Shown here: positions 2,301-55,865 of the stretch, in pieces
How the letters are laid out: the number at the start of each line of letters is the position of its first letter
How positions within the stretch are numbered: the first letter of the stretch is position 1
NCBI RefSeq assembly: GCF_026210795.1
Contig: NC_089430.1
Coordinates: 3,658,001 to 3,722,000 of the forward strand
From: Rhizophagus irregularis
Lineage: Eukaryota
DNA: 64,000 bases
Direction: 5' to 3'
Translations under genes and position numbers: made by a program
Notes under the pieces: model-generated
The model's database searches: none
What the model saw: only the letters and a program-made list of their open reading frames with translations
Told to the model about the DNA's origin: nothing

Positions 2301-4055
2301 TAGTGCTCTAAAAAAAATCCGATCTGATCTGGATCCGCAAATTTGATCCGAGTCAGATCCGGTTTGGTTTTCAAAATTCTGATCCGTAGATCAGATCAGA
2401 TTTAAAAAAAATCTGATCCGATCAATTTCAGATCAGATCAGATCATAACACAAGAAAATCTGATCCGATCTGAACAGATTCAGATCAGATTTTTTTTTAA
2501 ATAAAAAAAAAAATTTTTTTTTTAAAAACTTTTCCTGGACGAACGGACGAAGCCGGACGACCAAGATTTAAAAGAACGAACTAGGTAAGTTCGTTTCTTT
2601 TTTTTTGTTTTTTTTACTTGAGGGAACGTATTTAACGGTTCCCTTCTTTAGTAGGAAGCCTGGACGAACGAAACCTAACGACATGACCAGGATTTAAAAA
2701 AAATGAACGAACTATGGTAAGTTTGTTCCTTTTTTTTATTTTTTATTTTTTATTTTTTATTTAAGGGAACGTAATTAACGTTCCCTTTCTTTTTTTTAGG
2801 AAACCTGGACGTGAGACGAAGGAACGACCAGGATTTAAGAGAACGAACTATGGTAAATTCGTTTCTTTTATTTTTATTTTTTATTTTTTATTTAAGGAAC
2901 GTAATTAACGTTCCCTTTCTTTTTTTAGAAAACCTGGACGTGAGACAAAGGAACGACCAGGATTTAAAAAAAAGAACGAACTATGGTAAGTTCATTTCTT
3001 TTATTTTTATTTTATTTTTTTTACTTAAGGGAACGTAATTAACGTTCCCTTTCTTCTTTTTTTTTTAGGAAACCTGGACGTGAGACAAAGGAACGACCAG
3101 GATTTAAGAGAACGAACTATGGTAAGTTCATTTCTTTTATTTTTTTTTTTATTTTTTATTTAAGGGAACGTAATTAACGTTCCCTTTCTTTTTTTAGGAA
3201 ACCTGGATGTGAGACGAAGGAACGACCAGATTTAAAAAAAAGAACGAACTATGGTAAGTTCATTTCTTTTATTTTTATTTTATTTTTTTACTTAAGGGAA
3301 CGTAATTAACGTTCTCTTTCTTTTTTTTAGGAAACCTGGACGTGAGACGAAGGAACGACCAGGATTTAAGAGAACAAACTATGGTAAGTTCGTTTCTTTT
3401 ATTTTATTTTATTTTTTTACTTAAGGGAACGTAATTAACGTTCCCTTTCTTTTTTTAGGAAACCTGGACGTGAGACGAAGCTGAACGACCAGGATTCAAA
3501 AAAAAGAACGAACTATGGTAAGTTCGTTTCTTTTTTTTATTTTTTTATTTTTACTTAAGGGAACGTACTAATTAACGTTCCTTTCTTTTTTTTAGGAAAC
3601 CTGGACGTGAGACGAAACTGAACGACCAGGATTCAAAAAAAAGAACGAACTATGTTAAGTTCGTTTCTTTTTTTGTTTTTTTTTTTATTTTTACTTAAGG
3701 GAATGTAATTAACGTTCCCTTTCTTTTTTTTTTAGGAAACCTGGACGTGAGACGAAGCTGAACGACCAGGATTCAAAAAAAAAACGAACTATGGTAAGTT
3801 CGTTTCTTTTTTTTGTTTTTTTTCTTTTTACTTGAGGAACGTAATTAACGTTCCCTTCCTTTTTTTAGGATAAGGACCAGATCTGAACCAGATTCGGATC
3901 AGATTCAAATCGGATTCAAATGGATCCGAACCAGATTCGGATCAGATTGAACCAGATCTGATCGGATTCGGATCAGATCAGATCTATTAAAATAAAAATC
4001 AGATCGGATCAGATTTAAGCTGAATCCCGTCTGAACCGATCTGTTAGGAGCACTA
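2301..4055. mobile_element. Non-autonomous hAT-like DNA transposon inserted in the LINE RNase H domain
   Basis: 8-bp TSD TTCTTGAA (2293-2300 and 4056-4063). TIR TAGTGCTC/GAGCACTA. Dense subterminal GATCCG/CAGATC motifs at 2316-2490 and 3878-4042. Removing it restores the frame ..DGFILE|SYYNTIPS.. Confidence 0.9.
2530..3870 (+). repeat. Tandem array of about 10 units (~130-140 bp), each a micro-exon plus GT-AG intron with hairpins
   Basis: Unit: TTTTTTAG|GAAACCTGGACGTGAGACGAAGGAACGACCAGGATTTAAGAGAACGAACTATG|GTAAGTTCGTTTCT..AAGGGAACGTAATTAACGTTCCCTT..TAG. Confidence 0.88.
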
Positions 4056-6194: not shown

Positions 6195-6665
6195 ACTAAT
6201 ATTTTTTTATTTTTTTTATTGTAGTGAACTTCCAGACTTCAAAATGATCGCCTGAAATGAGAAGTAAGTGGGAACAATTCATTTTTTTATTAATTTCGTT
6301 TAAGAATATTTACTACTAATGTTCTTTTTTTATTTTTTTTATTGTAGTAAACTTCTCAGATTTTGAAATGGACGTCTAAAATGAGAAGTAAATGGAGACA
6401 ATTCATTTTTTTTTATTAATTTTGTTTAAGAACATTTACTAATGTTCTTTTTTTATTTTTTTTTATTGTAGTAAACTTCCTGGACTTTGAAATGGACGCC
6501 TAAAACGAAAAGTAAGTGGAAAACTTATTTTTTTTTATTAATTTCGTATAACATTATTTACTAATGTTTATTTTTTTATTTTTTTATTGCAGGGAATGCT
6601 TCCTGAAGTGTTCTACTTTTTTTTGTAGATTTTAGCTTAGGACTTGGAAATGGAGACCGATAAGT
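6195..6665 (+). repeat. Tandem array of 3-4 micro-exon/intron units (~125 bp)
   Basis: Repeated ATTGTAG|T(G/A)AACTT..GAAATGGACG(C/T)CTAAAA(T/C)GA(G/A)AA|GTAAGTGG..AAGAACATTTACTAATGTTCTT.. Confidence 0.75.
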
Positions 6666-7358: not shown

Positions 7359-7720
7359 TATGTAATTGATAATTACTACATTGTGTTGTAATAGTAAGGG
7401 TTGCAACTGATGACTTTTATTTTAAAGTTAAAGGTAATATTACAACACTTACGATTGTTCAAAAATTTCCTTTTTGAAAAATAAAAATTACAAAAATAAG
7501 TTTTTATAGAACAAATATCATCATAAAAGAAATAATTAATATATAATAATACATATTTATATAATTGGAAATAATTACAACACTATATAATAATTACAAT
7601 ACTAGTAGTAATTATAATACTATATAATAATTATAATATTGTGTTGTAATTACAACAAAAGTGTTGTATGTATGTTGTAATAGTTGCAACCTTATAACCT
7701 TCTAAAAATAATTACATATT
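7359..7720. mobile_element. Short AT-rich MITE-like repeat with inverted (A)GGTTGCAACT motifs
   Basis: AAGGGTTGCAACT at ~7396 and AGTTGCAACCTT at ~7682. A reverse-complement copy is found in three pieces at ~50688-50826, 55165-55245 and 63026-63180. Confidence 0.65.
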
Positions 7721-29119: not shown

Positions 29120-30149
29120 CTTTACTGAAATATTCAAATCTAAAATAATATCTTAACGATATCATTATGAGATCGTAACGATTTCATGACGATTTTCTAA
29201 AATGATAACATATTGATATAGTTACGACTCTCTTAACGATAACGTAATAATACTGTGACGATACAGTGAATGATAACAAAACGATATCATCCAGATATTT
29301 ATTGATACTGAAATAGCATCATTTTAGTATCAGCACGATATCATCGCAGCAATGATACAGTGACAATACAGTGAATGATAGCAAAACGATATTATCCTAA
29401 CACTAAGATAGCATCATTTTGGTATCAGCACAATATCATCGCAGCAATAATACAGTGACAATACGGTGAATGATAGCAAAACGATATTATCCCGACACTA
29501 AGATAGCATCATTTTGGTATCAGCACGATATCGTCGCAGTATTATTACATTATCATAACTGTATCAGCATGTTATCATTTAAAAATCGGCATAAAACCAA
29601 TATGTTCCCATATTGATGTCGTTGAGATGTATAGAAAACAACTAATGATTATTCAGAATATCAATCATGATATCTTAACGATATTTAAATGTTATCAGCT
29701 TGGTATTATGACAATAATTAAAGTATCAATTTTATTAATAATCAAAATTTACTTATTACATATCTGATCATAAATAATAATTACAACATCGTTACTAGTG
29801 AAATTACTAGAACTAACTTTATTTCCATAGTATATGTGAAATTTAAAGCATTTACAATTATTTAATAATACCATTCAGTTTTTAAGAAATACGTGTAATT
29901 AATAATAATACCTACCATACTTACCGAAAATAAGATGCAACAATTGCAGACACAAGTGCTGTTTTAACACATACTAAATCCCTGATGGACATGGAATGAT
30001 TGTTTTGATTTTACCGCCAAGTCTATGGAAGCAACATCTCCAATTGTTCCTAAAAATACTCTAGTTGAATATGATATAAAGATAACGAGTGAGTAATAAT
30101 ATAATTTACTTATAATTTTTGATATTATAAAAACTTTGTTTATTAATAA

Positions 30150-30327
30150 CCTTTTGCAATATTTTATCGCCAATAGTTCCGCGCTCCTTGATAGGTTGTT
30201 ACTTCTTGGATGGTTGATATACGCTACATATTTCGTGTTGTCGGTCTTGATCAATACTGTCTGATTGGAATGGCCCTGTATTATAGAAGGGAAAATAAAT
30301 TGCTCTTAGCTCCAGGTGATTGATCAT
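30150..30327 (-). pseudogene. DIRS-type RNase H fragment
   Basis: INHLELRAIYF..VLIKTDNTKYVAYINH resembles the DIRS RNase H motifs HINxLEL and DNTTxVAYIN. Confidence 0.7.
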
Positions 30328-30735
30328 CTAAAGAACGAAGTATTAGTATTAGCATCTCATTTTTAAAGAATAAAGAAAATCAAGACTTCGAAGTAGTAAA
30401 ACCTTCGAAATCTTTGTATAAACTCTGTCCAATGATCAAGAAACTTAGAAATATAAAAGTGAACGTTAGATAACATTTGTTAAAATTTTTTTTTTGAAGT
30501 TTACCTTCAAAGTAAAGTCCAGGTCCGAACCTTTGGTGATATGTGTCCTGGAACCAACAAAAAAAGCAAATGAAGACGTTAGTTAACGTTTCGTTTAAGT
30601 GAAAAATAAAAAAATCGGATTTATCAAGCTTACCTTCGAGTAACAGCCTGGAAGCCGTGAACCTACAAAAGAGAAACTGAAATGTTTAGCTTCATTTAAT
30701 TGAGAAACAATAAATAAAAGAATTTCAAAGTTACC
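30328..30735 (-). repeat. Array of 4 hairpin-bearing introns separating 3 micro-exons
   Basis: Minus strand: GAAG|GTAAC, TCGAAG|GTAAGCTTGA, TTTGAAG|GTAAACTTCAAA, TTCGAAG|GTTTTACTACTTCGAA. Branch hairpin AACGTTAACTAACGT. Pyrimidine tracts end in AG except one degenerate acceptor (TTG). Confidence 0.6.
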
Positions 30736-31370
30736 TTCTAGGTGTAGTAAACTTTCGTTTGGAAGAGTCACTGAGCCATTCACCCTTTTAGCTTCAAACT
30801 TCTTTTTCTGTCGCGAAGTAACGCCCCAGAATGCAATCGTGCTGGAAAATCTGAGTTCGCAGTTGCCACAATCTTTCCTATCAACGAGGCAAGTTTTCGT
30901 ACGGGAGAATTTTGAGTTGTTTCGCCTTCTGACATTCCCTCACTAAGCTCTTTATTTTGTGTTTTGGCAATTTAAGTGTTATTGCCTTTGAATCGAATTT
31001 TAAACCCTAAGTAATCGATCACCCGTGTAGGAGTTAGATAAGATTTGTTTTCGTTTACTATGAACCCATGGTTCTACTAGCAATTTTACGATAATCGAAG
31101 CATGGTCTTGAGCCTGTTCTTTTGATGAAGCCATTATCAACAGGTCGTTTAGATAATCCACTATCCTTATTCCCTGAGCTCGATATTCTGGGACTTGTTG
31201 TCAAGCCGAACGGTAAACATGAGGAAATCGAATGCAAAATATTTTCGTTGGAACTCTGCTAGCGATATGTGATAGAAAAAGCTTGATTGAGGTCGATAGT
31301 GACCATAAAATAGCCGCGTCTCAACAATGACTTTACTAGGTCTAGTACATCTTGAAGTGGTTGTATTGAA
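30736..31370 (-). pseudogene. DIRS-type (tyrosine-recombinase retrotransposon) reverse transcriptase fragment, frameshifted and internally deleted
   Basis: VKSLLRRGYFMVTIDLNQAF/YHISLAEFQRKYFAF..GIRIVDYLNDLLIMASSKEQA..GFIVNENKSYLTPTRVIDYLGFKI/DSKAITLKLPKHKIK..KLASLIGKIVA..PARLH..NGSVTLPNESLLHLE. Confidence 0.8.
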
Positions 31371-31863
31371 CACGTTAGAATTTTTGAAGATTTGTAGCTA
31401 CTTTCGTTATGCTGTTTAGCTCTGGCGGTTTGACTGGCCACCCTAGTTGTCGTTTCCCGCAGGTTGATTCTTCCCTTTCCAAGTATTACTCTCATTTCTT
31501 CCTTTATAGTTGTTGTCGTTAGGTTTTTTAATATTGTGAAAAAAAACAGTAGTTAATCTGAAAAATAACTTACTTCAAACTTCAAAGGTATCAAATTTCA
31601 AAGAAACTGGTAATTATTTAACTTTAAATAAATATTTAAAAATAAAAAGTTTGGCGTAGAGGGATTTTATCAGTAAAACAAAAAAACAAAAAATTTAAGG
31701 TTTTTATTGGTTAATCAGATCCAGTCACGTGAAATAGCATTGCTAAATCACGAATATGAAGATCGATCGCTAAATGCATTATTTTAAATAACACTAAATG
31801 ATACCACCATTAATTTCATCCTACTAATTACAAATAAATATAATAAAAGTCCTTATTATAAAG

Positions 31864-34800
31864 TCATATAGCAGTAAAAAAAAAATCATTTTTTATCCAG
31901 CATTCATTCGTTGCATCATAAACAAAGTGAACCTTTTGCACACGGTCAATTACTAATATTGGGAATATTCTTCTCCAACATGTATCATAGGTTGCCTGAA
32001 TACGATAAAGAGGACATTTCAATACATGGTGAACTCTCTTAATTTCTTCAAACCAATCAATAATAATAAATGCATAAAATTTATTATTGTTGGCTTTATA
32101 TTTGAAGATTCCTTTTATAATTGCATAACATTCATCATGATTTTCTTCTTGTATTGTTACAAAGTCACCAATATGAAGATGGATTTTGGAGAAGACACCA
32201 CTAGTAGTTTCTTCTATTATATAGGTTGCCAATTTATACCAACTCATTTGAGAATATATAAGTGCTGACTTAAATCCAATATCTTCAAATGAAAGGAGCA
32301 ACTCAGAATTGAAATGTGGCAAGTTCAACATAATATTTTCACGATCTTGTTGGGATACCCCCTTTTTTAAAGTAATATGTGTAATAAAGTTTACTGGAGA
32401 AGTTACTATAATAAAATTACAATGTATAAAATTAATCATTCAGTAATCAGATTTGAATTTTAAAAAAAAAATAGTATCAAAAAATTTTGCACAAATTTTT
32501 CTTGATTAGAATTACTTAGTAAATAATAAAATTACAATACAAACCATTATCTTGTTCATCATGTTCATTTGATGTTTCTTTGTTTTCAGTAATATACCAA
32601 TTGGTTAATATATGCCTAAAATTTGATGTCAGAGAAGCAAACCCATTACAACTTTGAGATAACCTATAATCTATACCACCATCTACTAGATGACGAATTG
32701 CAAAAAGTGTGGTATATCGTTTTAATAAATCTAATTCAATATTCTTGCGATTTGTCCGGGGTACCATTGCTTTAAAGACCCGGTGTACCATTTCTTTGAT
32801 ACCACATTGAGTATTTATAAGAGTACCATAAGTTTTTGCATGCATTAGTAAATGAACACTAACATGCAGATTTGGCAAGTTGACAAATTCAGAGAAAACC
32901 TAAAAATCATTTATTATTAGTAAATAATTAATTCAAATTGCTATACTAAGTAATTATTTATACCTTTGGAAGAATATTCATTTCTTCTTTAAGACTTTGC
33001 TGTAATTCTTCATAAGAATTTATTGTAAACTTGCTTTTAAAGACCATACTCATTGTTTTTGCTATATGAACCCAACAAGTTATTATTGTATTTTTTACTA
33101 AATTAATACGTGATGCACCAGTTCGTTGTTGGATGTTTTTTGCCTCATTATTCTTCAAACTAGTTATTTTTAAAAACCGATTTAATATGAAAGGCATTAT
33201 TATAGCAAGCCGAAGGTAATCAGACATCATAAAACTTTCCCGGTGGCTAATGGGATTTGGTATACGTGACCATGTCTTTGGTTTCTCAAAATCTTTTCAG
33301 GTTTTAATGAAATCATTTTCTCCTTCTTGTGAAAATAATTCACAAGTTAATTTGAGTAGACGTCCAATTTTTCCTGCAGTAACATGGTAAATATCTTGTG
33401 GTGTTTGCAAATGTCTCTCTCTTTTCAGTTCATCTAAAATATTAGGCTGTAATTTCAATCCATATTTCCTACTAAGTTGTTTTTTTTGAGAAATAACTGT
33501 TTCAGCAGATATTAAAGCAAATTCAGAATCTGTCAAGTGATGATATCGAGAAGTTAAAGCTATATTTTGAGTAAAATCAGTAAATGAATCTTTACTTATA
33601 GTACAACTTCTACACCCCTTATTAGCATTTTGTCGCAATACACCAGCCAAATCATTACCTTGGGGTAAGTCAGCTGTTACAACTCCTATGCTTGCAATTA
33701 CCCAAACATCCTGTCCTTGTATATTCATTACTTTTCCTTTTTCAAGTTCTTTTATTTCAGAAATAAAAGGTTTTATAAACTCATTAAAATCACCACCAAA
33801 TGGGACAAATCCAAGGACAAAGTGATTTTTAAGCAACTTCCTTTGATGACTTGGCATATTTCCAAATTGTATATAAACACCTCCTAATGAATGGTAGACA
33901 TTTCGGTATGTGCCAAAATCATCATAATAAAGATCCAAAAATAGTTTGCAGACTTTCATGGAAGGAGATGGTGGTGGTCTTGTTATGATATAATCAGCAG
34001 GATGTTTATATGAAAAATCTACATTACGAATGCGCCAGTAACTATTATGTCTATAAACTATTTCAGTAATATGCAATGTTTCTTCAGGAATGAGATTATG
34101 CTGGAATATCATCATCACAGTAGCTTTTTTAGAAATTTGTGATATTCCAATTATTTGAAAAGATAGGTCTTGTAACCAAACTTCACCAGTAAGAGAACGG
34201 TTCCATCTTAGTACTCCCTTAAAAGCTCCAGGCAAATCATTATAATATAGAACTTTTTGGATTCTTAGCTGATATTGCTTATCAACTTCATTCATTAATA
34301 TTGCTCTCAATCTACCAAGGTGCAATTGTTCATTATTGTCATTATCATAATAATAAATAAAATCTCCACATCTATATGTCTCTATTAGATATAAAAAAAC
34401 AATAGAATTATTTTACACAAATTATGAATAAGAATAAATAACAAATATGATTATATGATCATTACCTTGTAATATTGTTAATTGTTCTTGGCCAAAAAGG
34501 GGTGATTCTGCCCATAAAGTTCCATGCCAGTATTCAGATTTTATTTCTGAATGAATACCTGGACCAAAATACATATTATTAACTAATGATGGATTACTAA
34601 GGACATGCCAAATAATATCATTTATTGAAAGTTGATATGCTAATTTTGAGTTTTTAGAAGTTGATGGTGTTTTTTTTGATGAAATTGGGATAGATTTTGC
34701 AGATATTGAAAGAAGAGGAAGATGTTGCCTCCATGTTCGAAATCTTCGGATATTTCTTACAATATGATTCCTATTGAATTCTTGATTCATAATAATATCA

Positions 34801-35447
34801 ACAAGATCTTCATACGCATTTGTTGAGATATCATGTTTATGAATCCAACAAAATAAAGCAGCAGTAGTAAAATCTTGGAAATATGGTGCAAAATTGCCAT
34901 TAAAATTTGGTAAATTGCTTTCATCTAGCGCTCTATCAATGAATATTTTTTCCTCTGATGAGGGATTAGCAATATTTTCTCCGCTTTCTGAAGATGTTGT
35001 TGTATCACTTTGTGATGATGCATAAACATGGTTTTCACCTTCTAGAGATGTTCTTCCTGTATCGCTATTATAATCATCATATTCTTCGTTTTCTGAAGAT
35101 GCTGTATAATTATCATCATTTTCTGACGATGTTGCATAATCATCATTTCCTGCATTCCCATAATCATCATATTCTTCGTTTTCTGAAGATGCTGTATAAT
35201 TATCACTATTTTCTGATGATGTTGCATAAATATCATCATTTCCTGCATCCTCATCATCGTCATATTCTTCATTTTCTAATTGCATATCAACATTATAATT
35301 ATTTCGTTGTTCATTACTATTATCAAAATTGTCACTACCATTATCATCATTTGGTGGTACTATTGTACCTTGTGGTTGCCTTCTAAAATTATTTCGAATA
35401 CGAAAAGGTAATGTAGTAGTATCCCTTCGTGCTCTATTTCGCAACAT
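31864..35447 (-). CDS. CMC/EnSpm(Plavaka)-like transposase of the inner element; 4 exons, one nonsense codon
   Basis: Exons ~35447-34467, 34382-32964, 32899-32543 and 32411-31864. LDLYYDDFGTYRN, VVTADLPQGNDL, GCRSC, PQDIYH. TGA at 33297 where the outer copy has W. Colinear with 26299-29119 plus 44351-45102. Confidence 0.88.
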
Positions 35448-36515
35448 TGTTAACAATCAAAATCAAAATTCTAAATTTTTATGAATATACAAAAATTAAT
35501 GCCTTATTCGTATATTTGCTTATAATGCAATAAATATTATTATACTGACCTATACGGTGGCTATAGTGACTGAAATATACGTATGTTGACTGAGCTAAGC
35601 TGAAGCTGAATCTCTGAATCGCCAAGTAAAAAATACACCAATCTTTTTTATATTGATATCTTGAAATTCAACAAAATCCCGGTTTCACCTTAATATGTCC
35701 TTTTCTTGATAAGGATAATCAAAATACACAAACATATATGAGTCAAACACAACGGATGCATTTTTCTTGATAGAACGTGACACAATTATTTTAGTTGTAT
35801 TACTTTCGCATCGATCAAATCACAGCACGTAAATAAAATAAAAATATTACAATAAAACAATAAAATAAATATAATAATGTTTTTTAATATATGTAAATTT
35901 ATTAGTGAAGTTGGAAAAATAAATTTAAAGGGGAATAAAAGAATAAAAAGGAGACGATAAAGTTGGAAATATAAAATAAAAAAAAAGTCAAGCCAACACC
36001 GATTATCGGTGTGGTATGATACCAATGATTGTTACTTAACAATGTTAATGTATTTCGTACAGAATTGCATATAATTTATTTTAATTGTAAAACTATTGTA
36101 AAAATTGAAGTCTGCATAATTAAATAGTAATCGCGAATTAATCATCGGTAGATCAGTATTCTATATAAGGTTAAAATTTATATTGTTCTTCCTAGCCAGA
36201 AATCAATCGGTAAATTAAACTAAATAATAGTTATCAATCGGTATTATTAAATAAATCAGGTGACCTTGTAGTAATTACATCTACTTGCGTCACATAATCT
36301 ACAACATGCAGATTTTATCAAATATCACTTTAACAAAATTTATCATGCATCATCGTGTATTATTTGTTATTAAGAAAAAAGAATTCTCAATGATGATATT
36401 ACTTTATATATCATCACATCATACATCAATAATATTCTGTCACAACAATAATATCACACCAATAATTTTTATTACAATATATTGCAACTTCACTGCATTT
36501 TATTACATTTTTTTA

Positions 36516-38284
36516 TTAAAATTTCAGTGAGCTAGCAAAATTCTTTCCACTACGGGACGGAATTTCTAAATTTTCCGTATTTTTATCTAATCTTTTGATT
36601 TGATTATAGAAAGCCTTAGTGTTGGTTTCGTTCCTTTCCTCCCACGCAATACTAAAACATTCTCTCGAAAATTCAATTAGTTTGTCCATTGATATTTCTG
36701 AAATTTCAGATATATCAACCGCAGAAAAATAGCGGTTAAGAATTCTCTTAATAGCAACTTCACATGAAATAAAATTGGTAATCTCAACTTGAGTTTCTGT
36801 TTCTGTAATAGTTCCTCCTCTTTATAAAAAAAAGGAAAGAAATTCATATTGACATTAGTTATAAATACAATTATAAATGCAAATAATATTATATTGATTA
36901 CCTTTCTAATTTTTTTTGAAATTCTCAGACTAATTCTTCAATTGACACCCTAAGCTGATAACGATAGTCTGAAAAGGATTTTCTACATCGATCTATAATT
37001 GATTTTGCTGTGCTACTATAAGTTTCAAATTCGGGAAAAATTTTTCGTACTAGTTTTTCAAAAACGAGACCAGGTGGGAACCGAGATCTTAAAAAAAGAC
37101 ATTTTATTTCTTCATCGATTAACCTATATTTTTCCTAAATAATAATAAAAGTTTTTGTGAAATATTTATGAAAATTATAGTCACAACAACTGAATGTATC
37201 GATCGAAATACAATAAACGCTTACATTGGATGCGGTTGATGGCGCGTGTGCTGGCTGCTGCACTGCTAGTGCTAATTGTGACGTACTATCCTTCATATTT
37301 AACATTTGAGTGGCTAGCTGCAGGATATCCGGATGATCAACTAGCCAATTGCAGATTTGCAATTGGTTTGTCATCGATTCGAATTGGGGGGGAACTTGAC
37401 GTCATATTTATTTTATTAATAATAAATGAAGATATTTATGTATAACAAAATATTGTATTAAACAAGATTTTACCAGAATAGTTATCGTCTTCTTTTTCTC
37501 TATAATCTTGATCATCTTCTCTTTCATTTCTTCTCCTCTTAATTCTTTCTCTATTCTCTATTTCTCGTCCTTCTTGTTCTTGATGACGACAGAGGGGATT
37601 CTGACGTTCTCGTTCTTGTTCTTGACGACCACGGTGAGGATTCTGACGTTCTCGTTCTTGTTCTTGACGACCACGGTGAGGATTCTGACATTCTCGTTCT
37701 TGTTCTTGACGATCACGGTGGGGATTCTGACGTTCTCGTACTTCTTGTTCTTGACGATCACGGTGGGGATTCTGACGTTCTCGTACTTCTTGTTCTTGAC
37801 GACCATGGTGAGGATTCTGCTGATCTTTGGAAAGATCTTATCATTATTTATTATTGTTTTATTATTGTGTGTTATTATCGTTTGTTTTTAATAGTTTTTA
37901 AGTAAAAATTAATATCTTCAATTGTATATAATAAAATGCAAAATTCATTAAATTCATAAATTAAGATTCTATGACTGACCTCCGAGAAAATCTATTTCGT
38001 CATCCTCATTGCTTATTTCATCGTTAATTCCTCCATCCTCATCGTTAAATTCATCATTAACTTCTTCGTCTGTTCCCGATACAGTTTTTGCTCGACCTTG
38101 ATTAGTTTTCGCAGCTTTTGATTGACTTTGAGCAATTCCTGCAGCTTTAATTCGACTTGCCGCGGACTTTGACTTTTTAGTAGGTTCTGTTATATAGATA
38201 GCATTAAAACCGCTATTCAAAAATCAAAAAAAAATCAAAAAAAAAGGAACCAAAAAATATTCAAATATTACTTGATCGAACCAT
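36516..38284 (-). CDS. Cargo gene D: multi-exon paralog of gene C with NPHRDRQEQE(V)RERQ repeats
   Basis: TNQLQICNWLVDHPDILQLA, EEIKCLFLRSRFPP, KRILNRYFSAVDI, IPSRSGKNFASSLKF*. 42-45 bp repeats at 37575-37820. Confidence 0.75.
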
Positions 38285-41200
38285 GATTTAAGAATACCAA
38301 TCAGATCAGAAAAATCTTAACCCATGGGAAAATAAAGTGTCTCCTGCTCTATTGTATTTATATCTGACTCTAGCAGTATAAGAACCTGTTTATTGGTAAT
38401 CATGCCTTGTCAAACCATTTTCTGAATGCCACTTTTCTGAATATACTTCTCCCTAAATCAATTATCTAAAATGCCAATTTTCCAAATAGGATCTTTCCCT
38501 GAAATATTCACGAATCTGTATTTCCTGAATTCCAAATTCCTGATGCTCAATTTCCCAAATCCCGAAACCTAATATATCCTTATACCCAATATCCCGAATG
38601 GGCAATTTCCCGAAATATAAAATAATATACTGTAATCTCTTTTAATTCATATGATTTATTATAAACTGTGTAATAGATAATGGATGAGAATTATTGTGAT
38701 AAATACTTTGTTTCCATAAATCGGAAATTGGCTGATACAGATGTACATATATCGTAAACAGATCAACGGATCGATCTGTTTATATACTGCAGTCACGATA
38801 ACAAAATTTTCCGGTTATGCACTTAACTGCTGTAATCATTGACCTATCGCATATTATTTAAAGTAATGTAAGAATATTAAATAATTGGCCAAAGATATGC
38901 ACATATAAGATCAAATGATAAAAGAATGAAGTCAAAAAAAAAAAAAAATTTTTTTAAAAAAAAAAAATTTGAAAAAGGAGTGCAGTGCAAGGAGTACAAA
39001 AAAAAAATTTAAGGGGCCGAAATGCAAAGCGGATAACCCAAATCAACCCGGTAACTTACGTGATCAAAGTATGTATCCTGGGAAATTTTCATAAGATAAA
39101 AAGGAAAAAAATTTGTGTATTATTAATTTGGAACATAATCATTGTGCTATAAACCCGATTTAGGTAGTAACTAATATGTATTTTATTTATATTTAAAATT
39201 TTTCTTCGTTTAAGAGCAATGATATAAAAAACAACATAAAAAACATATTTTATATACAATATACAGTGTATTCGACTTTTTAGTATACTGTAACGTTTCT
39301 CCAAATAAAAGAATTGGTATTGATATTGACCCAAAAAGAAAAGATGTAGTTAAAATTGACCGTAGCCCAATTGTAGAACAATATCCAAAATATTGTGTGA
39401 ACGCTAAAACGAATTTGCGTATTAAATATATTTTTTACAACTCCAACGGATGATCATGCATAATTAGATAAGCCATGTAACGGTTGTTACAAATAAATTT
39501 ACAAAATGTTTATATTATACTGTACGTGAATTTTATGATCTTTATATATATGTAAGAAAAATATTTAAAGAATTTATTATATAATCTTAATTTTATTTAT
39601 AGATAGACAATAATTAATTAATTGATTAGGTTCGTCAACGAATTATATATACTTTAGTAACAAACCTATTTCTGTTTTCTTGTCTAATACGCGTTGCTAA
39701 CTCCTGCACGCTATAAATTTTTTCCTAACGAATATCACATCTCCCTTTTCAAAATCTTTCTCAATATTCCTATCTGAATGAAGGCTTTGATTTTCAAATA
39801 ATTATTTTTTTGGATCATTAGCGTCTAATATTGACACAGCCGTAACCTCTTACTCTTGAGTGAGCCTTTCGCTAGAACCATGTAGAAACTTGGACATTTT
39901 TTGATAAATAGTATTTGTGGAGGTTCGGGTGCAATTGGTGTAAAAAGTTTTTTTGTTAAAATATTTTTTTACATGAAATTAATGAAAAAATCTAAAGGAT
40001 GATGACTTTTTATACCTTTTTTTATAATGTTAGAAATCTTCTTTTTTTCAAATTCATTCAAAAATTCAAAATTCGTTAAATTCGATCGTTGAAAAAAATT
40101 GATAATTTAATAATTGAAAAGAAGGAGCCTCAAATTTTCATTTTCCCTATGGAAAAAACATCATGAGGCATGAGACTTCGTTATTTCATTATCATTCTCA
40201 CGAGGCAATCACTTGCCATTATATTAAACGTCCGTATAAGGAACTGTAACATTTTTTTTCGTGAAATGATTTTTTTAATTAATTAATAAATCCAAAAAAA
40301 ATTTTTTTTAAGGAGGTTAAAAAAAAAAAAATCTTGGATTGAAACGTAATGATATAAGTTACAGGTCAGCAGCATCAGTGTAAATATATAGTTATATATT
40401 TATTATTAAAACATGACCTCTCCTTCAAGGAAAAAGAATCATACAATATATTTTAGATATTTTAACATGAATATTTGTAATTGCATACTTCAATCCCATA
40501 ATTCACAGTTTTTTATAAATTATTAAATTTTTTATTGTAGTTACAAATCGTTACCATCCTAGCAATAGGCATTGTACAATTGGTAGATCTAGCTCTGCTC
40601 TACCATTTCGTCTAACGATGGACATTGTATAACTGGTATCATTTTTTTTTGGGTTGTCATTAGTACCGACGTCCTCGTCGTGCAACCTGGGTACTAGTAA
40701 TATGCTAGTAGCAAACGGGTACTACTAAAATTGAAAAGAATGAAGCTGAAGCAAACAATTAAACTTTTTTTTATTGTTATTACACGTGAATCTTTTTTAC
40801 TAGTTATGAATTTTTTTTATCCGCTAATAAAAAACTTTTTTCACATGGTTTTTTCACGTTTTTTTTATATGTATACATTTTTTAAAATATTGATGAATTT
40901 TTTTATGTGATAATTATGTAAACAAGTCATTTTTTTTATAAAATAAATATTTCCTAAAATGATAATATTCCTCGAGTTTGATCGTTCGATTAATGATCTC
41001 AAGGCTATCTCTTTTTTTTGTATATAAGAACAAAAAAATGATTATTTTTTTAGTACTCCAACGTAGCGGAAGAAAATTTTTTAGGTATGAATTTATAAAA
41101 TTTTTTCTTTATATAAATTGACTTCAATAATTTAATTTATTTTTATTGATAATTTATTTAATAGAAAAATCAAAGCAGTGGTTTTAATTTTTTTTTTTTA

Positions 41201-41889
41201 TTAATTCAACGCGCAGTCAGCAGCAGAAAAAATTTTTTTAGGTACGAATTTAATAATTGACAATTCATATAGAGAGACAATTCATAAGCTACTATTAACA
41301 ATTAATTGATTAAAGCATGTCGCCACCTGGATCATCAAGAAAAAGGACGAGAAAGACCTATTTCCAGCGTCATACTCATCGTCAAAAAGACAAAGAAGAA
41401 AGAAGATGGAAAGATAAATCCTATGAATTGGAAAAGAAATATGATAATCTTTTGGAAAATTCTGCATTTTTTCTTATTTGGGGATTTTTTATTATTGTAG
41501 TTTTTATTTTTATTTTTATTGCTATTTTAATTAATAAATACTATTAGTATAAATACTTCTAATTTCATTTGCTGATTTTGATCACTTTTGACTATATTCT
41601 CAAACCTGACTTTTTAAAAATGATTGAACCCAACTGTACCACCACAGATTTGATGGTGATGCAGGAGACTAAAATCAAAAATTTGACCATGATCTACATT
41701 AGATATTGGTCGAATAATGCACTAATTAAACGTCACGCGTATTTAAAGTTTAAAAAAGGATCATCTTTTTTAAACTCCCCTTTCCCCTTCCACTTTCCCT
41801 CCTTTCGTTCGTCCTCCCTTTCCCTTTCGTCCTTCCCTTCCCCTTTCGTTCTCCCCTTTTCTCACACCTTCTTCCGCCTCTTTTTCTTG

Positions 41890-43570
41890 GAAGTAATGTA
41901 AGTTTCGTTTCGAAACTTACATATCTTTTTTTTAATTTTTTTTTTAATCTTTTTAATTTTAATTAAGAAACGAACTAACGTTTCTTTTCGTTATTTTTTT
42001 TATAGGACGTGTAGGAGGACGCCGGCTTGTTCACGAAACCGGACTTTAAGGTAAAAAACGGGGAAAGGGGAAGGAGGAAGGGGTTTTGGAACCTAAAATT
42101 CTTAAGAATCTTGGTTTTATTTATTTATTTTTTTTATTATTTTGGAACGGTTTACTAACCGTTCCTTTCTTTTTTTTATAGGCTCGGTGTATTTCCGACG
42201 AATAGATGAACCAAGATTCGTAAGTACGAGTACGAATCTTGGTTTATTTATTTTTTTTTTTAATATTATGGAACGGTTACTAATAACCGTTCCTTTCTTT
42301 TTTTAGGTTTCGGTGGAGCTTCCGAGTTCCGAAGAACAGAAAAACTAAGATTCGTAAGTAAGTACGAATCTTGGTTTTGTCTTTTTTAAATATTATTAAC
42401 GGTTACTAATAACCGTTTTTTTCTTTATTTTTTTAGGTTCGGGTGTCTTCCGAAGAACGGAAAAAGAGGACCAAGATTCGTAAGTACGAATCTTGGTTTT
42501 GTTTATTTTTTTTTAATATTATGAACGGTTACTAACCGTTCTTTCTTTTTTTTAGGTTCGGGTGGGCTTCTGAAGAACGGAAAACCCAAAGATTCGTAAG
42601 TACGAATCTTTAATTTTTTTTATTTATTATTACGAACGGTTTACTAACCGTTTTTGTATATTTTTTTATAGGTTCGGGTGGGCTTCCGAAGAACGAAAAC
42701 CCAAAGATTCGTAAGTACGAATCTTTACTTTGTTTTTATTTTTTATTATTACGAATGGTTTACTAACCATTCTTTCTTTTTTTTTATAGGTTTGTGGGCT
42801 TCCGAGGATCGGAAAAAGGAGAACTAAGGTTCGTTACGAACCTTGGATTTTTTTTTATTATTATGAACGGTTTCTAACTGTTCTTTTTCTTTTATTTTTA
42901 TAGGTTCGGTTGGCTTCCGAAGATCGAAGGAACCAAGATTCGTAAGTACGAGTACGAATCTTGATTTTTGTTTTTTTTTATTATTTTGGAACGGTTTACT
43001 AACCGTTCCTTTCTTTTTTTTAATAATTTCTTACGTTTGTAGGACGGTTCCTTGGAATTTTCTTCAGCTTTGGTAAGTTTCTTTTGAAAATTTATTTCTG
43101 GGAAAGGGAGGTGCAGCTGGTGTTTTTTCATAGTAATTAGATAAAATTTTTTTTTTACACCATAGCCACCATGTACGCTAGGAAAACGGAATCCTTCGTG
43201 TTGCATAACTCGCAAATGTTACGTGTAGGACGTGTAGATGTCTTGGAATTGGTAAGTTTTATTTTTTTATTATTAATTTTGATTTTTTTTTATTAATTTT
43301 TTTATTAATTTTTTTTATCTTTTAATTTGTAAAAATCGATAGTTTCACACTTCCCGGATCGAATTAGTAAGTTTTTTCACTTAAAACTTTTTTTAAAATT
43401 TTTTTTTATTATTATTTAATTTTTTTATTATCTTTTTTTGTAGTTTCGGCTTCCTTATCCCGGATCAGTAAGTTTCAAAACGGTTCGTTTTGAAACTTTT
43501 TTTTTAAGTTTAATTTTTCCGAATTTTTATTTCAGATCGGACTTGGACTTTATTTTTTTTCTTTAGGTAT
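41890..43570 (+). repeat. Tandem array of ~12 micro-exon/intron units (~115-130 bp) with hairpins over the 5' splice site and branch point
   Basis: Unit: TTTTTAG|GTTCGGGTGGGCTTCCGAAGAACGGAAAACCCAAAGATTC|GTAAGTACGAATCTTT..GAACGGTTTACTAACCGTTC..TAG. Confidence 0.88.
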
Positions 43571-44350
43571 AGTTAGACGACTTTTAACATTCGTTCTTTT
43601 CAAGATGTGATCACGTGATTTGAACTTTATCTTTTTTTTATTTATAATATTAGATAAATGCTAATATACGTGTACTGTAGCATTTAATAAATTAATAAAT
43701 TTGAAATTGAACTAATATTAAACTAAATTAATAAAAAAAATATTGAAGAATAAATTGGTCATCTTTAGAGCTTAAAATTTTGTCGAATAATATTTATCTG
43801 AACTTGTGCCTTAATTTGACTACTATTAGACCTATAGTCAAATTTAGGTTGAACGGTAGTGTAATGATAGTTGAATATTCTTTCCGTATAAGACGATTGG
43901 CACCCGAACTGCGCCAAAAAATTCGACCTTAATTTGACTTGTCTTTTTTCAACTAGTGTAAAAAAATCGTTTTAGCAATATTAAACCGATATCAATATGA
44001 TAATTATTTGTTGTTTTAGCGATATCAACATATTATTGATTTAACATTTTTAAAATAATATCGTTATGATATATTTTAATACTGAATTGATATTATATCA
44101 ATATCGTGTTTTTTCACATTTTTTTAAAAAAATATCATTGTCATTTTGACGATATTAAAGTGATATCGATTTGATATTTATTTAAATAAATATCTCTACG
44201 ATATCTTTTTGATATATCAAATCAATATTGGAACGATATCATCCTAATATTATAATGATATCATCTGCAAATCGATATCACTACGATATAGAATTAACAT
44301 CATTATTATATCAATTTGGCATTGTTTAAAATTTTGAGGTTTCTGTAAAG

Positions 44351-45102
44351 TAGATGGAGGCGCAGATCAAAGATTATCACAACCTTGTAGAGGTTTCGCT
44401 ACTATGTCCTCAAATTTTAGAAATTTATTGACTAATTGGTATATTACTGAAGACAAGGTATCAAATGAACAAGAACCGGAAGGAAATGAAGAAGGTTTGT
44501 ATTACAATTTTATAATAATAATATTTCCGCAATTATTAACGTATTTTTAATTTTATATAGCCATTTCATCTCCAGTGGATTTTATTACAAATATTATCTT
44601 AAAGAGGAGCTTATCCCGTCAGGATCGCGAAAATATCATGAAAAATTTGCCAAATTTCAAATCTGAGCTGCTTCTTTCATTTATGGACATTGGACAAAAG
44701 TCAGCTCTTATATATTCTCAAATGAGCTGGTATGAATTGGCGACATACACTATGGAAGAAAGCGATGGCGTATTTTCCAAAGTACATCTTCATATTGGTG
44801 ACGTCATAACAATACACGAGAAAGACAGTGGTGAATGTTATGCGATTATAAAAGGGATCTTCAAATACAAAGGCAATGATGATAAATATTATGCCTTTAT
44901 TACTATTGATTGGTTTGACAATATTAACAGAATTCACAACGTATTGAAATGTCCTCTTTTTCGCATTCAGACAAGCCAAGACATTCGCTGGAGAAGAATC
45001 TTCCCGATATCAATAATTGACCACGTACAGAAAGTTCACTGTGTCTATGATACGAAAATTGATTTGTGGATAAAAAATAATTATTATTTTACGGCTATAT
45101 AG
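44351..45102 (+). pseudogene. 3' part of the outer transposase with C-terminal BAH-like domain
   Basis: Resumes at DGGADQRLSQPCRGF, continuing FAIRHLV (cf. FAIRHLVDGGIDYRLSQSCNGF in the inner copy). LHIGDVITIHE..YAIIKGIF..FITIDWF. Confidence 0.88.
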
Positions 45103-46124
45103 CTTTATTATGCAGTACAATATCTCATGATTCTTTTCGGTATATTTATTTATGATAACGTGATTTATTAAATAAATAAAGATAACGATATCGTTACGAT
45201 ATCGTTTGATATCGTATTCATGAATTTATTAGGCACGTGACTTTGCAATTTTTATCCAATCAAATCATTGTTTGTTAGACATGTTAAACATTCGCACGAT
45301 TATGTTTATGTCTACATCTCTCTATTCAATTTTTTTTTTAATACCGAAAAACATTTTGACAGTTTTTGTTATCAACAGTATACTTTATTCAAAAAAATAT
45401 ATTCATATTAACAATTACAGTCAGACCACTGTATATGCGCGTCTATTTTTATTCTGGCGTACGACAGGTACATATTCTGCTCTCGCTGGGTTATGTTAAA
45501 CTATCTTTGATATTTATATAACGCGTCAAAAATAATTACGCGTTCAGTTTTAATAGTTTTTACCTTTTTATAATAATTTTTTTTTCATATCAATACCCAA
45601 AGAAAAAGAATAAAGGGAAAGAAGAAAAAAAAGAAAAAAACCATTGTGAAAAAACGAAAAAGAGAAAACAAAGGAACGAAAAGAAAGAGAGATTATCCTG
45701 AAATTTTTTCACAAAAGGTACTACTGTACTTGGGGGATCATTCGAGGGTTTTTTTTTGGCCGCTGATGGAAATGCACCATTTTTAAGACCTCTATATGGT
45801 AGGCCGTATCATGGAGGCAGGGTATGCACATAGCGAAAGCGCCGTGCTCCTATGTAATACTTGGGATCTTGTGGTATCGGAAGGTAGTGGTGATGTATCA
45901 TTGGTCATAGGCAGTTGGGTGCTAATGGCTGACGACCTAAGGGACACTCTAATGAGGTAGGCCCGCCGGATGAGCTCAACCCACTTATTGCATTTTTTGA
46001 TTCTTAAGGTTGAAAATCTTGGTGACCCAAGTGTTCTGAAACCAATTTTTATTTAAAAAAAAAATTTTGTTTGATTTCTATAAACGCAGTACTTTAATTT
46101 ATGCATCTTTTTTAGGATTAACAA

Positions 46125-47129: not shown

Positions 47130-47720
47130 AATATTTTTAAATGATATCGTAACAGTACGGTTTGATAATTATATCGATACATTTTCAACATCATCATAAC
47201 ATCTTCACGAAAACATCACGATTTTTAAATGATATTGTAACAGTACAGCTTTGATAATCATAACGATACATTTTCAACATCATCATAACATCTTCACGAA
47301 AACATCACGATTTTTAAATGATATCGTAACAGTACGGTTTGATAATTATATCGATACATTTTCAACATCATCGCAACATCTTCACGATAACATCACGATT
47401 TTTAAATGATATCGTAACAGTACAGCTTTGATAATCATAACGATACATTTTCAACATCATCGTAACATCTTCACGACGACATCACGATTTTTTTGAAGAT
47501 ATCGCGACGATATAGTTATGATAGTCTTAACGATACCTTTCCAACATCTTCACAATATCAAATTACGAAATCAATATGATATTGTTCTGATATCAAAATA
47601 TTACCGATTTTAATATCGCGAAGATGTTGGAAAGGTATCGTTAAGACTATCATAACTATATCGTCGCGATATCATCAAAAAAAATCGTGATGTCATCGTG
47701 AAGATGTTGAAAATGTATCA
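47130..47720. repeat. Subterminal 89-bp tandem repeats ending in a ~90-bp-arm inverted repeat
   Basis: TTTTTAAATGATAT(C/T)GTAACAGTAC at ~47133, 47222, 47311 and 47399. 47465-47550 is the reverse complement of 47620-47710. Confidence 0.85.
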
Positions 47721-48704
47721 TTAAAATATTGTGGCAAATTTGAAGATTTCAGCAAAGTAACTAATTGTAAATAGACATGTAAACAAAAAATAATCATTAT
47801 ATATAAATATGTTTATTGTATAATCAGATAAAATTATTTATCCAATTTATTATAATTATTTTTTCACATATTATACCCTTGTAGACTATGATTTTTTAGA
47901 AGACCAGGCCTCAAAGGACCCTTTAACTATCACAGTTGATAATATCATTAAACTGCCACTTGAAAAGATTATGCCAATCATTTGAAGAGAAAGGATTTAC
48001 CATTTATGGTAACCATTTAACACTTTGAACCTCTACAGTAAAGCTTTTAGTACTTCCAGTGGTATTGTAAAATGACCATTGGAACAGAACACTACTCTGA
48101 AATATGTAAGTAGTAACTTTAAAGACAGGATTTTGAATATTCTAAAAACCTTATAAGAAATGTTAAAAATGTGTGACCTAACTGTATATACTAATTTACT
48201 ATGGTGCAGTTTAACTACTCTAATTCTTATATTTTCATATTATTGATAATAGTGTTTGCAGTAAAATTTGTTTAATTTCTGTGATCAGCAGAATTAAACC
48301 TATGACTTTACCATAATCAGACTTAATAAAGAAATGCGATCTTAACAACTATACTAGAATGATTAACCTTTAATAAAAATTTATTTTTGCACAAATGCTT
48401 ACAAACATCATAGTTAGCTTAAACTTATTAGAAGATAAACTACTGTAAAGACATTATACCTAAGACTTTACCATCTATGGACCCCATCTAACATGTGAAC
48501 CTTTGCAGTAAAGTTCAACATACCCTTAGTGATATCGTAGAATGACCACTAAGACAAGAGTCCATCTGAGTAGTATGCAAGTAGTGACTACTTAGACAGA
48601 AAAATTGGCTTCCCATTGCTTTAGTTTCAGAACGGAGGACACCATGATTCTCTGTTAAAATGTGCAGCCTAACTGTACATACTGATACACCATGATGCAG
48701 TTCA

Positions 48705-50687: not shown

Positions 50688-51080
50688 AATATGTAATTAT
50701 TTTTAGAAATTTATATATAAGGTTGCAATTATTACAACATACATAGTTGTAATTACAACACAATATTATAATTATTATATAATATTATAATTACTACTAG
50801 TATTATAATTATTATATAATGTTGTACAGTCAGACCTCTATAATTGCACTTTCTATAATTGCACCCACTATATCATCAGGAAATTTTATAGCGCGAAAAA
50901 TTGCGTAAGTTTACGATTTTGTAAGTTTACGAAAGTTTATGGCATAATATTTCGAAAAATTTCAAAATATTACGTAAGTTTACAATTTCGTAAGATTTAT
51001 GTGATATTACGGTTAAAATATTACGTAAGTTTTCAATATCGTAAGATTTACGCAATATTACGGTCAAAATATTCTGCAAA

Positions 51081-51650
51081 TTTACGAAACTGTAAACCTG
51101 CGTAATATTACGGTTGAAATATTTCAAAAATTTACGAAACTGTAAACCTGCGTAATATTACGGTTGAAATATTTCGAAAATTTACGAAACTGTAAACCTG
51201 CGTAATATTACGGTTAAAATATTTCAAAAATTTACGAAACTGTAAACCTGCGTAATATTACGGTTAAAATATTTCAAAAATTTACGAAACTGTAAACCTG
51301 CGTAATATTACGGTTAAAATATTTCGAAAATTTACAAAACTGTAAACCTGCGTAATATTACGGTTAAAATATTTCGAAAATTTACGAAACTGTAAATCTG
51401 CGTAATATTACGGTTGAAATATTTCGAAAATTTACGAAACTGTAAACCTGCATAATATTACGGTTAAAATATTTCGAAAATTTACGAAACTGTAAACCTG
51501 CGTAATATTACGGTTGAAATATTTCGAAAATTTACGAGATTGTAAACCTGCGTAATATTACGGTTAAAATATTTTGAAAATTTACGAAACTGTAAACCTG
51601 CGTAATATTACGGTTGAAATATTTCGAAAATTTACGAGATTGTAAACTGC
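51081..51650 (+). repeat. 50-bp tandem repeat, ~11.4 near-identical copies
   Basis: TTTACGAAACTGTAAACCTGCGTAATATTACGGTT(A/G)AAATATTTC(A/G)AAAA. Confidence 0.95.
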
Positions 51651-52020
51651 ATATGCAGTAGAACGTATACAAGGGGCATGTGATACTATTGAATAATCAA
51701 AAATAATATAAACACCTTTTCTTTTATATAAACACCTTTTTTTTTAAGTTTGGGAAAGCAAATTTATTTTTATTTACAAATTTTTTATTATTTACAATTT
51801 TTATGTTAAAAATTAAAGTAAATTCTAATTTTTATTATAACTTAATAAAAAAAATACACATTTGATACTTGTTCGCTACTATTTTATAAAATAGTACCCA
51901 GGCTGTACGGCGTGGACGTCAGTATCAGTCACAGCCCAAAAAAACGTGAGTCTCCAGCCGATATTTGGTACAAACTGGGCCTAGCTACTCACTTAATAAA
52001 TAATAAAAAAATAAAAATAA

Positions 52021-52927: not shown

Positions 52928-55865
52928 TATTAGATTAGATTTGATTTTTATAATTTGATTTTGGGATGAGTAAAAATTTGAAAGAAAGTCGTAAAATGTC
53001 ACTTTAAATAAAATTTGAACAATACCTCTTTGGTTTGATTTTATTTCTCGTTTCAATTAAAATTTAATTTATTAGACTTTTCATCATTAAACAGATTAAT
53101 TAAATCTCATGCGGATATGGATTATCTAAATATAAATATCATGATTCTAAATATAAATATAAATCACTTAATTTATTTTAATTTTTTTTTAAAAAAAAAA
53201 ATCTTAGTTTGATTTCAATTAAAAATAATTAAAAATCATGTACATGTTTTGGTTATTTAAATATAAATATCAATATATTATATTTAAAAATAAACCAATT
53301 TATTATTAGCACATTCTATTGAATTTTAAAAAAATCAATTTTTTTTTAAAAAAAAATCATCAATATATCATATTTAAAAATAAAACAATTATATTCTGAT
53401 TAAATATTTTGCGTACATTTCTTAAAAAAATCATAAAAAAAAATCTTGTACGTCGTACATGCAATTACTAAATATCATCCCCTCGTGATAAATAAAAAAT
53501 TACGCAACACAAATTCAACACAAACTCAACACAAATTTAACAAATTTAACGAAATTTGGCCAAAATTAATAATTTTTTACCAGAATTATCAACACAAATT
53601 AAACACAAATTGTACACAAATTTCAGTCACGATTTATTTATGTCACACCCGCTGTACAATATACATAATTTTTTAAAATGCAAATTTCTGTAATTTTATG
53701 ATATCGTATTTTCTGGCCAATCAAAATTAGGCTGATCCTTGCATGTGATTTAATCATTTAATCATGCACGCGTTTTTGTCTTATTTATTTTTGTTTCTTA
53801 TTTCTTTATTCTTTTGTTCAATATTTTTAATTTTTTTGTCTCTTCTTTCTATTATTTCTTTAATTATATACAATATGTTTACATATATTTCATAATTTAT
53901 TGCTTTGCAGGTATAGAAATATTTGTTTATTAATACTAATTATTTTCATTTTTTTTTACCTCTTTGTTATTTTGTATCGTAATACTAACAATAATATCCA
54001 TGTTTCCTTTATTCCTTTTTACTTGTACTTTAATACTAACGATACTAACAATACTAACAACATGTTTATTTTTTCCTTTCTCTTTATTTCTTTATTCTTT
54101 TGTTCAATTACTTTGCAGTTATAGAAATATTTATTTATTAATACTAATTATTTTAATATTAACGCGTTTTTTTTTTACCTCTTTGTTACTTTATGTCGTA
54201 ATACTAACAATACTATCTACGTTTCCTTTATTTCTTTTTACTTGTACTTTAATACTAATGATAATATCCATGTTTCTTTTACTCCTTTTACTGTTTCTTT
54301 AACTCTTTTTACCTTAATACTAACAATAATAACAATATTTCTTTTATCTTTATATCTAATACTAACGTTACTATAGCTGTTTCTCTTCTTTTTACTTCTA
54401 ATAATATTGTTACTCTACTCTTTCTTTTTTTTACTTTTATGTATTCTGTATATATTAATAAATACTTGTAATTTTTTATGATTATATCTAATAAAACATA
54501 CATTATATAAACTTATAGTACAGAAAATGAAGTATTATTTATCGAAATATTTTGAAATATTACGAAATATTAAGTTGTGTAAAATCACAGAATATTACGA
54601 ATCATCAAATTATGGAACATTACGCATCATAGAATTTCGAAATATTTTAAAAAGTTGTGAAGTATTACGCAGTAAAATTACGGAATATTACGAATCGTAA
54701 AATTACAAAGCCTTGCATACAGTAATATTTCGAAATATTTTAAAAAGTTACAAAATATTACGCTTACGCAAACTTGCGGCAGGTCTGAAAACTTACGAAA
54801 TATTATGTAAAATTACGAAATATTGTGAACCGCAAAATTACGGAATATTACAAATCGTAAAATTACGAAGCTTTGCATATCGTAATATTTCGAAATATTT
54901 TAAAAAGTTACAAAATATTACGCTTACGCAAACTTGCGGCGGGTCTGGAAGCTTACGAAATATTATGATGTGTAAACTTGCGCAACTTTTCGCACTATAT
55001 AATTTCCTGATGATATACCCTCTCTAAATGCACCCTCTGATTCAGTTCTAAGCTTATATGATCTCTAATTATTTTACCTCTATAAATACACACCCTCTTT
55101 AAATGCACTATTTTTAAAATTATACATATGGTCCCAAAGGTGTGCAATTATGGAGGTCTGACTGTAATTATTTTTAATTATACAAATATATATTATAATA
55201 TATTAATCATTTTTTTTATGATGATATTTGTTCTATAAAAACTTATAACTCTTTTCCATTACTCACTTGATCAAAAATTTCCATCAAGAAATGGATGAAA
55301 AGTATGAAGACTTTTTGCTTTTAGAATAATTAAAAGACTTTTTGAGGTGTTCTGAAGTGTCTGTCGTGGTTTGTAGGTTTTGCTCAGGCTCTTACAGCTT
55401 ATTATTAGGAACGTTATAATATGTCTTAGAGTCCATCAAAAATATTGTAAGATGGCAGTTCTGTACGAACATTTTCCTGGTCTTTCTGAAGAGTTTTGTA
55501 GCAGTGTGTCTGGTTTTTGCGCTCTTAAAGACTAACTGGCCAAGCGATTCACAGGTTAGACCTTTATTTCTGAAAGAAGCCTTTGCTGCGTAGCTCTTAC
55601 TAGCTGTTGTAACGGGTGTTGTTTTCTTACTTCTTTTCCTTATTATTATTATCATGGTTACTTTTCCTACTTTGTATATATTTTAGTTTATTCTTTCTGT
55701 CACTACCTTTTATTTTATTTTCATTATTTTCTTTTTTCCTGTACCACCTTTCTGCACATATTGGAAATTTGAAAAATAAACCAAAATCAGTTTATTCCTT
55801 CTAAATGATCATCCTAGTCATGTGATTGATCTTTTTTTTTTTCTTTTTGATATATTGATCAATTT

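Follow-up and report, generated by a model that had tools for sequence, protein, structure and literature searches.

A tandem array of short exons and introns with predicted hairpins at its donors and branch sites in transposon-rich DNA of Rhizophagus irregularis

Runs of very short exons are known from the micro-exon genes of schistosomes, which are alternatively spliced with the frame kept and encode secreted proteins; tandem arrays borne by Helentrons are reportedly present in Crassostrea gigas, and sister stwintrons are said to comprise many similar spliceosomal introns. The available text on DTC84 of Donax trunculus describes a MITE that contains tandem repeats (PMC3879986), and that on the introner-like elements of fungi describes many similar introns with a stable predicted structure (PMC3609843). 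The array that we report here from Rhizophagus irregularis is like tandem-repeat MITEs and Helentron arrays, as far as their accessible descriptions go, in being non-autonomous and of high copy number; in each case the central array varies in its number of units, every unit contains a palindrome, and the variants are laid out in an order. It differs from both, to the same extent, in that an exon and an entire spliceosomal intron make up each unit, that the hairpins lie on the splice signals and that the transcripts are spliced. With introner-like elements and sister stwintrons it has in common the many similar introns of stable predicted structure, but introner-like elements are, in the partial text, single introns at unrelated gene sites, whereas here the exon is duplicated in tandem along with its intron, the array is non-coding and one hairpin spans the exon border. 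The exons flanking the introns are homologous and repeat together with the intron, so the array does not consist of lone introns at unrelated exonic sites in the manner of an introner-like element. Unlike those of the schistosome micro-exon genes, its exons do not keep frame.

Glomhopper Cryptons were considered and set aside: in the available text their introns lie within recombinase genes and do not match the array design (PMC13465315). The accessible parts of two R. irregularis genome papers (PMC10234402 and PMC8647823) and of a survey of fungal hairpin RNAs (PMC9757828) contain no description of the design, and a search of the literature, to which Repbase and Dfam entries, subscription papers and supplements did not belong, returned none, in line with an earlier reading made from the sequence alone (hereafter the sequence-only reading), which knew of no named element with this architecture. 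The family may be present as an unclassified repeat in the supplementary repeat libraries of PMC8647823 and PMC10234402. Judged from the partial texts, what is new is the repeat unit of exon plus intron, which neither tandem-repeat MITEs nor introner-like elements have. The fungus itself is an arbuscular mycorrhizal symbiont of roots.

Anatomy of the array and its relatives

The DNA analysed, referred to as the window, is a stretch of 64,000 nucleotides. The cassette within it has a fixed order, from a pyrimidine-rich leader through a first intron, the core array and short exons to a terminal exon:

41760..43620, plus strand: whole repeat cassette, about 1.86 kb with approximate ends; translated gene models from other loci match 41763-43612
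41763..41897, plus strand: pyrimidine-rich leader (gene models P0204 and P0231)
41898..42005, plus strand: first intron, with a 12-bp hairpin that encloses the entire donor (pairing 1.00; z -4.0 and -3.6)
42006..42050, plus strand: 45-nt exon, common to other loci
42062..42181, plus strand: decayed core unit, donor TTAAG, both hairpins retained
42182..43042, plus strand: core array of 7 exon-plus-intron units; exon-exon joins seen in RNA reads from family members
42220, 42354, 42480, 42596, 42711, 42833 (damaged) and 42942, plus strand: core donors
42306, 42436, 42555, 42671, 42789, 42903 and 43042, plus strand: core acceptors
42471..42496, plus strand: example of a donor hairpin, crossing the exon/intron border, loop AAGT
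42523..42541, plus strand: example of a branch-site hairpin, whose 3' arm holds the branch A
43043..43467, plus strand: four short 3' exons (30, 23, 24 and 24 nt) with GTAAGT donors
43537..43620, plus strand: terminal exon, acceptor at 43536 or 43566, ending at the palindrome TCACGTGA; six gene models from other loci match it

When 38000-46000 was searched with the gene models from other loci, no plus-strand match fell outside 41763-43612. Units were delimited by cutting at acceptor AGs, and conservation of the acceptor AG is therefore circular. The seven core exons measure 38, 47, 43, 40, 39, 43 and 38 nt and the core introns 71-101 nt; the array introns have the GT donor, branch motif, pyrimidine tract and AG of U2 spliceosomal introns. 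GTAAGT occurs 11 times on the plus strand of 41890-43570, the damaged donor at 42833 reads GTTACG, and in the last core unit 41 nt separate branch site and acceptor. The tandem array of tiny exons and short introns is thus present as the sequence-only reading had it. Its estimate of about 12 units stands in part: seven core units and the decayed unit have the full design, but the count had taken in four 3' exons that lack it and the first intron, which is of other geometry and whose branch hairpin differs in sequence from those of the core units.

Compared with dinucleotide shuffles, the core units have folding z values between -2.3 and -9.5, and in all seven a hairpin is predicted across the donor, over the exon/intron border, and another on the branch site, as previously proposed; a third small hairpin at the exon start, missing from that proposal, is predicted in six of the seven. 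The local fold z averages -5.6 at the donor and -4.5 at the branch site, against +0.1 and +0.2 in 13 ordinary introns (p < 0.001 for both measures), a control set hand-picked from 16 candidates by homology gaps or appearance, on sequence only, after failed anchors had removed three. None of these 13 has a GTAAGT donor, the array donors being stronger. Perfect hairpins of at least 7 bp across GTAAG number 10 on the plus strand (9 of them in two arrays) and one on the minus strand, whereas 20 block shuffles gave 0-4. The further proposal that the splice signals are locked in these hairpins does not hold: 29-50% of donor positions +1..+6 are paired in the core units and AAGT lies in the loop, leaving the signals half exposed, and only the first intron (41898) has a donor that is paired throughout. 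The stretches of the four 3' exons show little or no folding (z +1.4 to -2.0), and the branch hairpin is absent from the three of their introns that were measured. Once joined, the exons of this copy make a spliced product without special structure (z -0.9 against mononucleotide shuffles), which folds no better than shuffles; it is the unspliced form or the DNA that has the structure.

Two further arrays lie in the window:

2530..3868, plus strand: second array (family 2), 10 units of the same three-hairpin design with diverged exons
6202..6592, plus strand: third array, 3 units, two of them with the branch hairpin

A covariance model of 16 family-1 units matches nine family-2 units at 2657-3871 with E between 2e-5 and 4e-3 on a rough calibration, and matches 30555-30644, 6246-6465 and 9294-9508 more weakly; the sequence round the branch hairpin is common to families 1 and 2, which may therefore share one ancestor. 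Over the 26 units of these two families the donor is GT in 24, a TAAC branch motif is found in all 26 and lies 20-27 nt from the intron end in 25, and the introns measure 70-101 nt despite diverged exons, so that the splice grammar is what persists across diverged families. The repeat is dispersed and of high copy number: gene models occur on many contigs, a metagenome scan found one locus, the second copy L001, on a contig with 8 complete units and part of a ninth (the two donors checked are both GTAAG), and 3350 contigs of a DNA-like set, X16, matched the array region, most of them less than 99% alike.

Because the short introns are numerous and nearly identical, and each has inside it a hairpin that would outlast excision, the array could be taken for the host transcript of stable intron-derived RNAs of mirtron, snoRNA or lariat type. 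Yet excision destroys the donor hairpin, which needs the exon, and leaves an intron that does not form a single end-to-end hairpin, the Rfam search of the whole window gave no match at the gathering score (ten weak matches in 41500-44000 fell far under the cut-off, the best at E 0.028), and the reads, which are from long-RNA libraries, show no pile-up of molecule starts or ends; we consider such a host transcript very improbable. Kissing of donor and branch loops, possible in family 1, was rejected on the loops of family 2, which are not complementary. A hammerhead ribozyme was rejected by inspection: a CTGA-type core, which we take to be the hammerhead motif, occurs in one of the seven core exons. 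Viral contigs, searched for the donor hairpin, gave no match.

Transcripts and reading frames

Reads were analysed over 42150-43100 of the window in two poly(A) runs (X21 and X22), in a third run (X24) that is only guessed to be RNA and whose joins have one dominant sequence, and in X16. The poly(A) runs contributed 1979 and 2353 reads of 11 million and the third run 315; 81-87% of reads in these three runs depart from the DNA sequence partway, against 1% in X16. Among the loose ends listed, from which exon-exon joins were taken, 67 reads of X21 at 42708 pass from an exon end directly to a next-exon start and 50 at 42556 have an exon end preceding the exon start, while in X24 an exon end is joined to the next exon in 104 reads at 42708, with a variant exon sequence, and an exon-exon join is seen in 17 reads at 42584; the X16 contigs with loose ends listed at 42708 and 42677 read on into the intron. 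No GT..AG joint is among the 15 of 200 joints listed. The ratio of exon to intron depth, from four exon and four intron bins of 30, is 41 in X24, 1.17 in X21, 1.11 in X22 and 0.92 in X16; family members are thus almost fully spliced in X24 and mostly unspliced in X21 and X22, two libraries that look unstranded, so that their intron reads may be DNA or antisense RNA. Reads at least 99% alike to this copy number 45 of 1979 and 48 of 2353, most reads being from other copies. Through the exon-exon joins and the depth, transcription and splicing at the sites that the sequence-only reading had predicted are supported at the level of the family, from reads mostly of other copies.

When proteins were searched with a public model derived from the array, the matches comprised 183 public "hypothetical protein" clusters that are exon chains in mixed frames, a figure that includes isoforms and strains and is not a locus count; at least 150 are named R. 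irregularis (the 120 listed and all 30 of the others looked up). These clusters mostly have one or two members. In the 120 listed models, which are predictions, exact exon-exon join peptides occur 338 times (in 108 models) and intron read-through 6 times, and an alternative donor 4 nt downstream is used 107 times. The public annotation implies a protein-coding micro-exon family with variable peptides made by alternative splicing; some of the 183 clusters are indeed annotated as several isoforms, and in this copy joining the exons yields open stretches of 122 and 100 codons. Against this, one of the seven core exons has a length divisible by three, 91 of the 120 listed models mix two or three frames, in this copy every frame of the joined exons contains 3-5 stops and the longest open stretch has no Met, and a Pfam search of chain P0066 found no family. 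The array does not encode a conserved protein, which agrees with the earlier suggestion that exon lengths keep no frame; a conserved protein in the joined exons, named there as one outcome that would refute it, is not seen. We see next to no likelihood of a coding family.

Origin of the hairpins

All three compensatory stem changes quoted in the sequence-only reading are present. In the 16 family-1 units 93% of cells pair, and the 11 cells with double changes all fall on three pairs, a number that 211 of 500 shuffles attain; the covariation score exceeds all 500, under a shuffle control that ignores relatedness. An anchored count gives four independent double changes within stems. Distinct single changes over the 26 units comprise 8 of sense-strand G-U and 10 of A-C type, small numbers that decayed copies blur, and there is no excess of G-U, which RNA-level selection predicts; such selection on the stems is accordingly not supported, and the result matches DNA-level palindrome repair, an explanation that the sequence-only reading had named among those that would overturn its own. 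Double changes occur largely without intermediates and loop duplications extend stems perfectly, both of which fit template switching in DNA, a process that, in the available text, can create and maintain stems (10.1101/2021.04.15.439925). Such switching can explain the covariation.

That reading had favoured a regulator selected as RNA, in which hairpins stall spliceosomes and the transcript feeds RNAi against the carrier transposons. Most reads of the two poly(A) runs look unspliced, and the covariation score lies above every shuffle; in the partial texts, SCANR of Cryptococcus targets poorly spliced transposon transcripts (PMC5851062) and unannotated regions hold 41% of the small-RNA loci of R. 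irregularis (PMC8647823). The array resembles the SCANR substrates of Cryptococcus neoformans, as far as that source goes, in being linked to transposons and in having slowly spliced introns, but those substrates have weak signals in coding transposon genes, whereas the array signals are strong, arrayed and hairpin-bound. With donors stronger than those of ordinary introns, a shuffle control that leaves relatedness aside, double-change pairs that shuffles often reach and no G-U bias on the sense strand, we judge a stalling regulator to be distinctly unlikely.

The array might also be a matter of DNA only, a satellite-like array in non-autonomous elements whose palindromes drive slippage, whose splice signals descend from a single UTR intron of an ancestor and whose splicing is incidental. 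The balance of single changes, the double changes mostly without intermediates and the duplications that extend stems perfectly favour it, and there is a precedent in DTC84, which in the accessible text has a palindrome in every core repeat (PMC3879986). Donors are damaged in three of the 26 units, and the most frequent differences in the three read sets are C>T and G>A, a CpG-type decay; the units thereby resemble decaying repeats, which counts against the explanation that we prefer below. On the other hand, donor and branch hairpins recur in two diverged families and the branch hairpin in a third, signals, spacing and intron length have outlasted exon divergence, and splicing is nearly complete in X24. 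We regard an array of DNA alone as possible but, on the whole, doubtful.

Carriers of the arrays and a proposed explanation

The window is AT-rich and holds many transposon remains, among them Helitron domains (56443-60695) and a BAH-like gene family. A reading frame in the neighbourhood is 98% identical to a protein of R. irregularis. Three elements enclose the arrays:

2301..4055, no strand assigned: non-autonomous TIR element of 1.75 kb with an 8-bp target duplication, filled by the second array
6046-7910: TA-flanked TIR element that encloses the third array
29120..44350, no strand assigned: 15.2-kb insertion bounded by short inverted ends and flanked on either side by TA, containing the array of 41760..43620

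The first, presumably hAT-like, has GATC-rich subterminal repeats and sits in a decayed LINE-like element; the second we take to be Tc1/pogo-like. The 15.2-kb insertion splits a BAH-like transposon gene (P0002, between 28999 and 44350) and has within it, on the minus strand, a homologue of the gene (31867-35456); an end similar to its own lies near 8250. The array of family 1 is probably nested cargo of this insertion. A terminal search in the window found no convincing TIR or target duplication directly round it; 3' of it is an unpaired end at 43958, with no partner in the window, which we assume to be CACTA-like or Helitron-like, and a repeated 12-mer accompanies that end in 43809-43958. The central tandem array holds no transposase. 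The proposal that the array is transposon-borne is thus borne out for families 2 and 3, by TIRs with a target duplication or TA, but this array's own ends were not found, and its carriage is likely rather than observed. Gene model P0242 fuses an array chain to a Harbinger-type transposase, and P0102, P0158, P0191 and P0194 fuse chains to other apparent transposon genes, as identified by eye with no Pfam support.

Other repeats were seen in the window. On the minus strand, 30400-31520 holds a degraded piece of reverse transcriptase (weak RVT_1, E 0.022) and, after it, short exons and introns, one of which weakly matches the array model. Two related 73-nt stretches of hairpin plus CTAG (40644-40716 and 51871-51944) are presumably like Helitron 3' ends, and a long inverted repeat (61342-61464 / 61537-61660), found by eye, lies upstream of the Helitron reading frames. 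Thirteen copies of a 50-bp tandem repeat, 92% alike, occupy 51004-51647, with similar motifs near 54542-54967; 53930-54430 is T-rich with several TACTAAC motifs and CAG acceptors and no GTAAGT donor; and 47133-47727 is a GATATC-rich foldback of 89-bp tandem units with 84-bp arms.

The explanation that we prefer, although its chances seem to us evenly balanced, is a transposon-borne exon-intron cassette that is kept spliceable, with hairpins made in DNA and with host-like handling as its gain. The locus would be a non-coding copy of a dispersed repeat, its tandem units transcribed and, in family members, partly spliced, and DNA transposons would be its likely means of movement. The arrays may expand when slippage or unequal crossing-over takes place between T-rich introns, and template switching in DNA would probably build and repair the hairpins. 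Under the rules by which U1 and U2 pair with donor and branch site, these hairpins would expose only loop bases to the two, slowing splicing and leading to intron retention and to use of the second donor 4 nt downstream. Selection would then act on the retention of spliceable introns and not on the spliced RNA. Splicing would let transcripts of the element be treated as host RNA, which is the likely reason for keeping introns; this host-like handling is proposed by analogy with Cryptococcus, where introns raise expression and export according to the available text (PMC5851062), and with HUSH, whose intron-based marking of self and non-self would account for an element that gains by its introns (PMC7619638). 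HUSH is described for mammals, and no such system is known from Glomeromycota.

In two or more diverged families, this cassette repeats a working intron together with a non-coding exon, and both splice signals bear hairpins. In the public annotations of R. irregularis it explains at least 183 orphan "protein" clusters, isoforms and strains included, and it may belong to the 24% of the genome that, in the available text, is unclassified repeat (PMC8647823). Its hundreds of natural variants offer a test of whether transposon introns act as marks of self or as triggers of RNAi, and the arrays equally offer a test of how much apparent covariation stems from DNA template switching alone. A broader and more tentative proposal, which we think unlikely, is that splice cassettes occur in several DNA-transposon superfamilies of arbuscular mycorrhizal fungi, where a four-base toehold for U1 and U2 would set the splicing rate and so steer transcripts towards host-like export or RNAi; if true, such cassettes would be a new class of transposon cis-element acting via the spliceosome.
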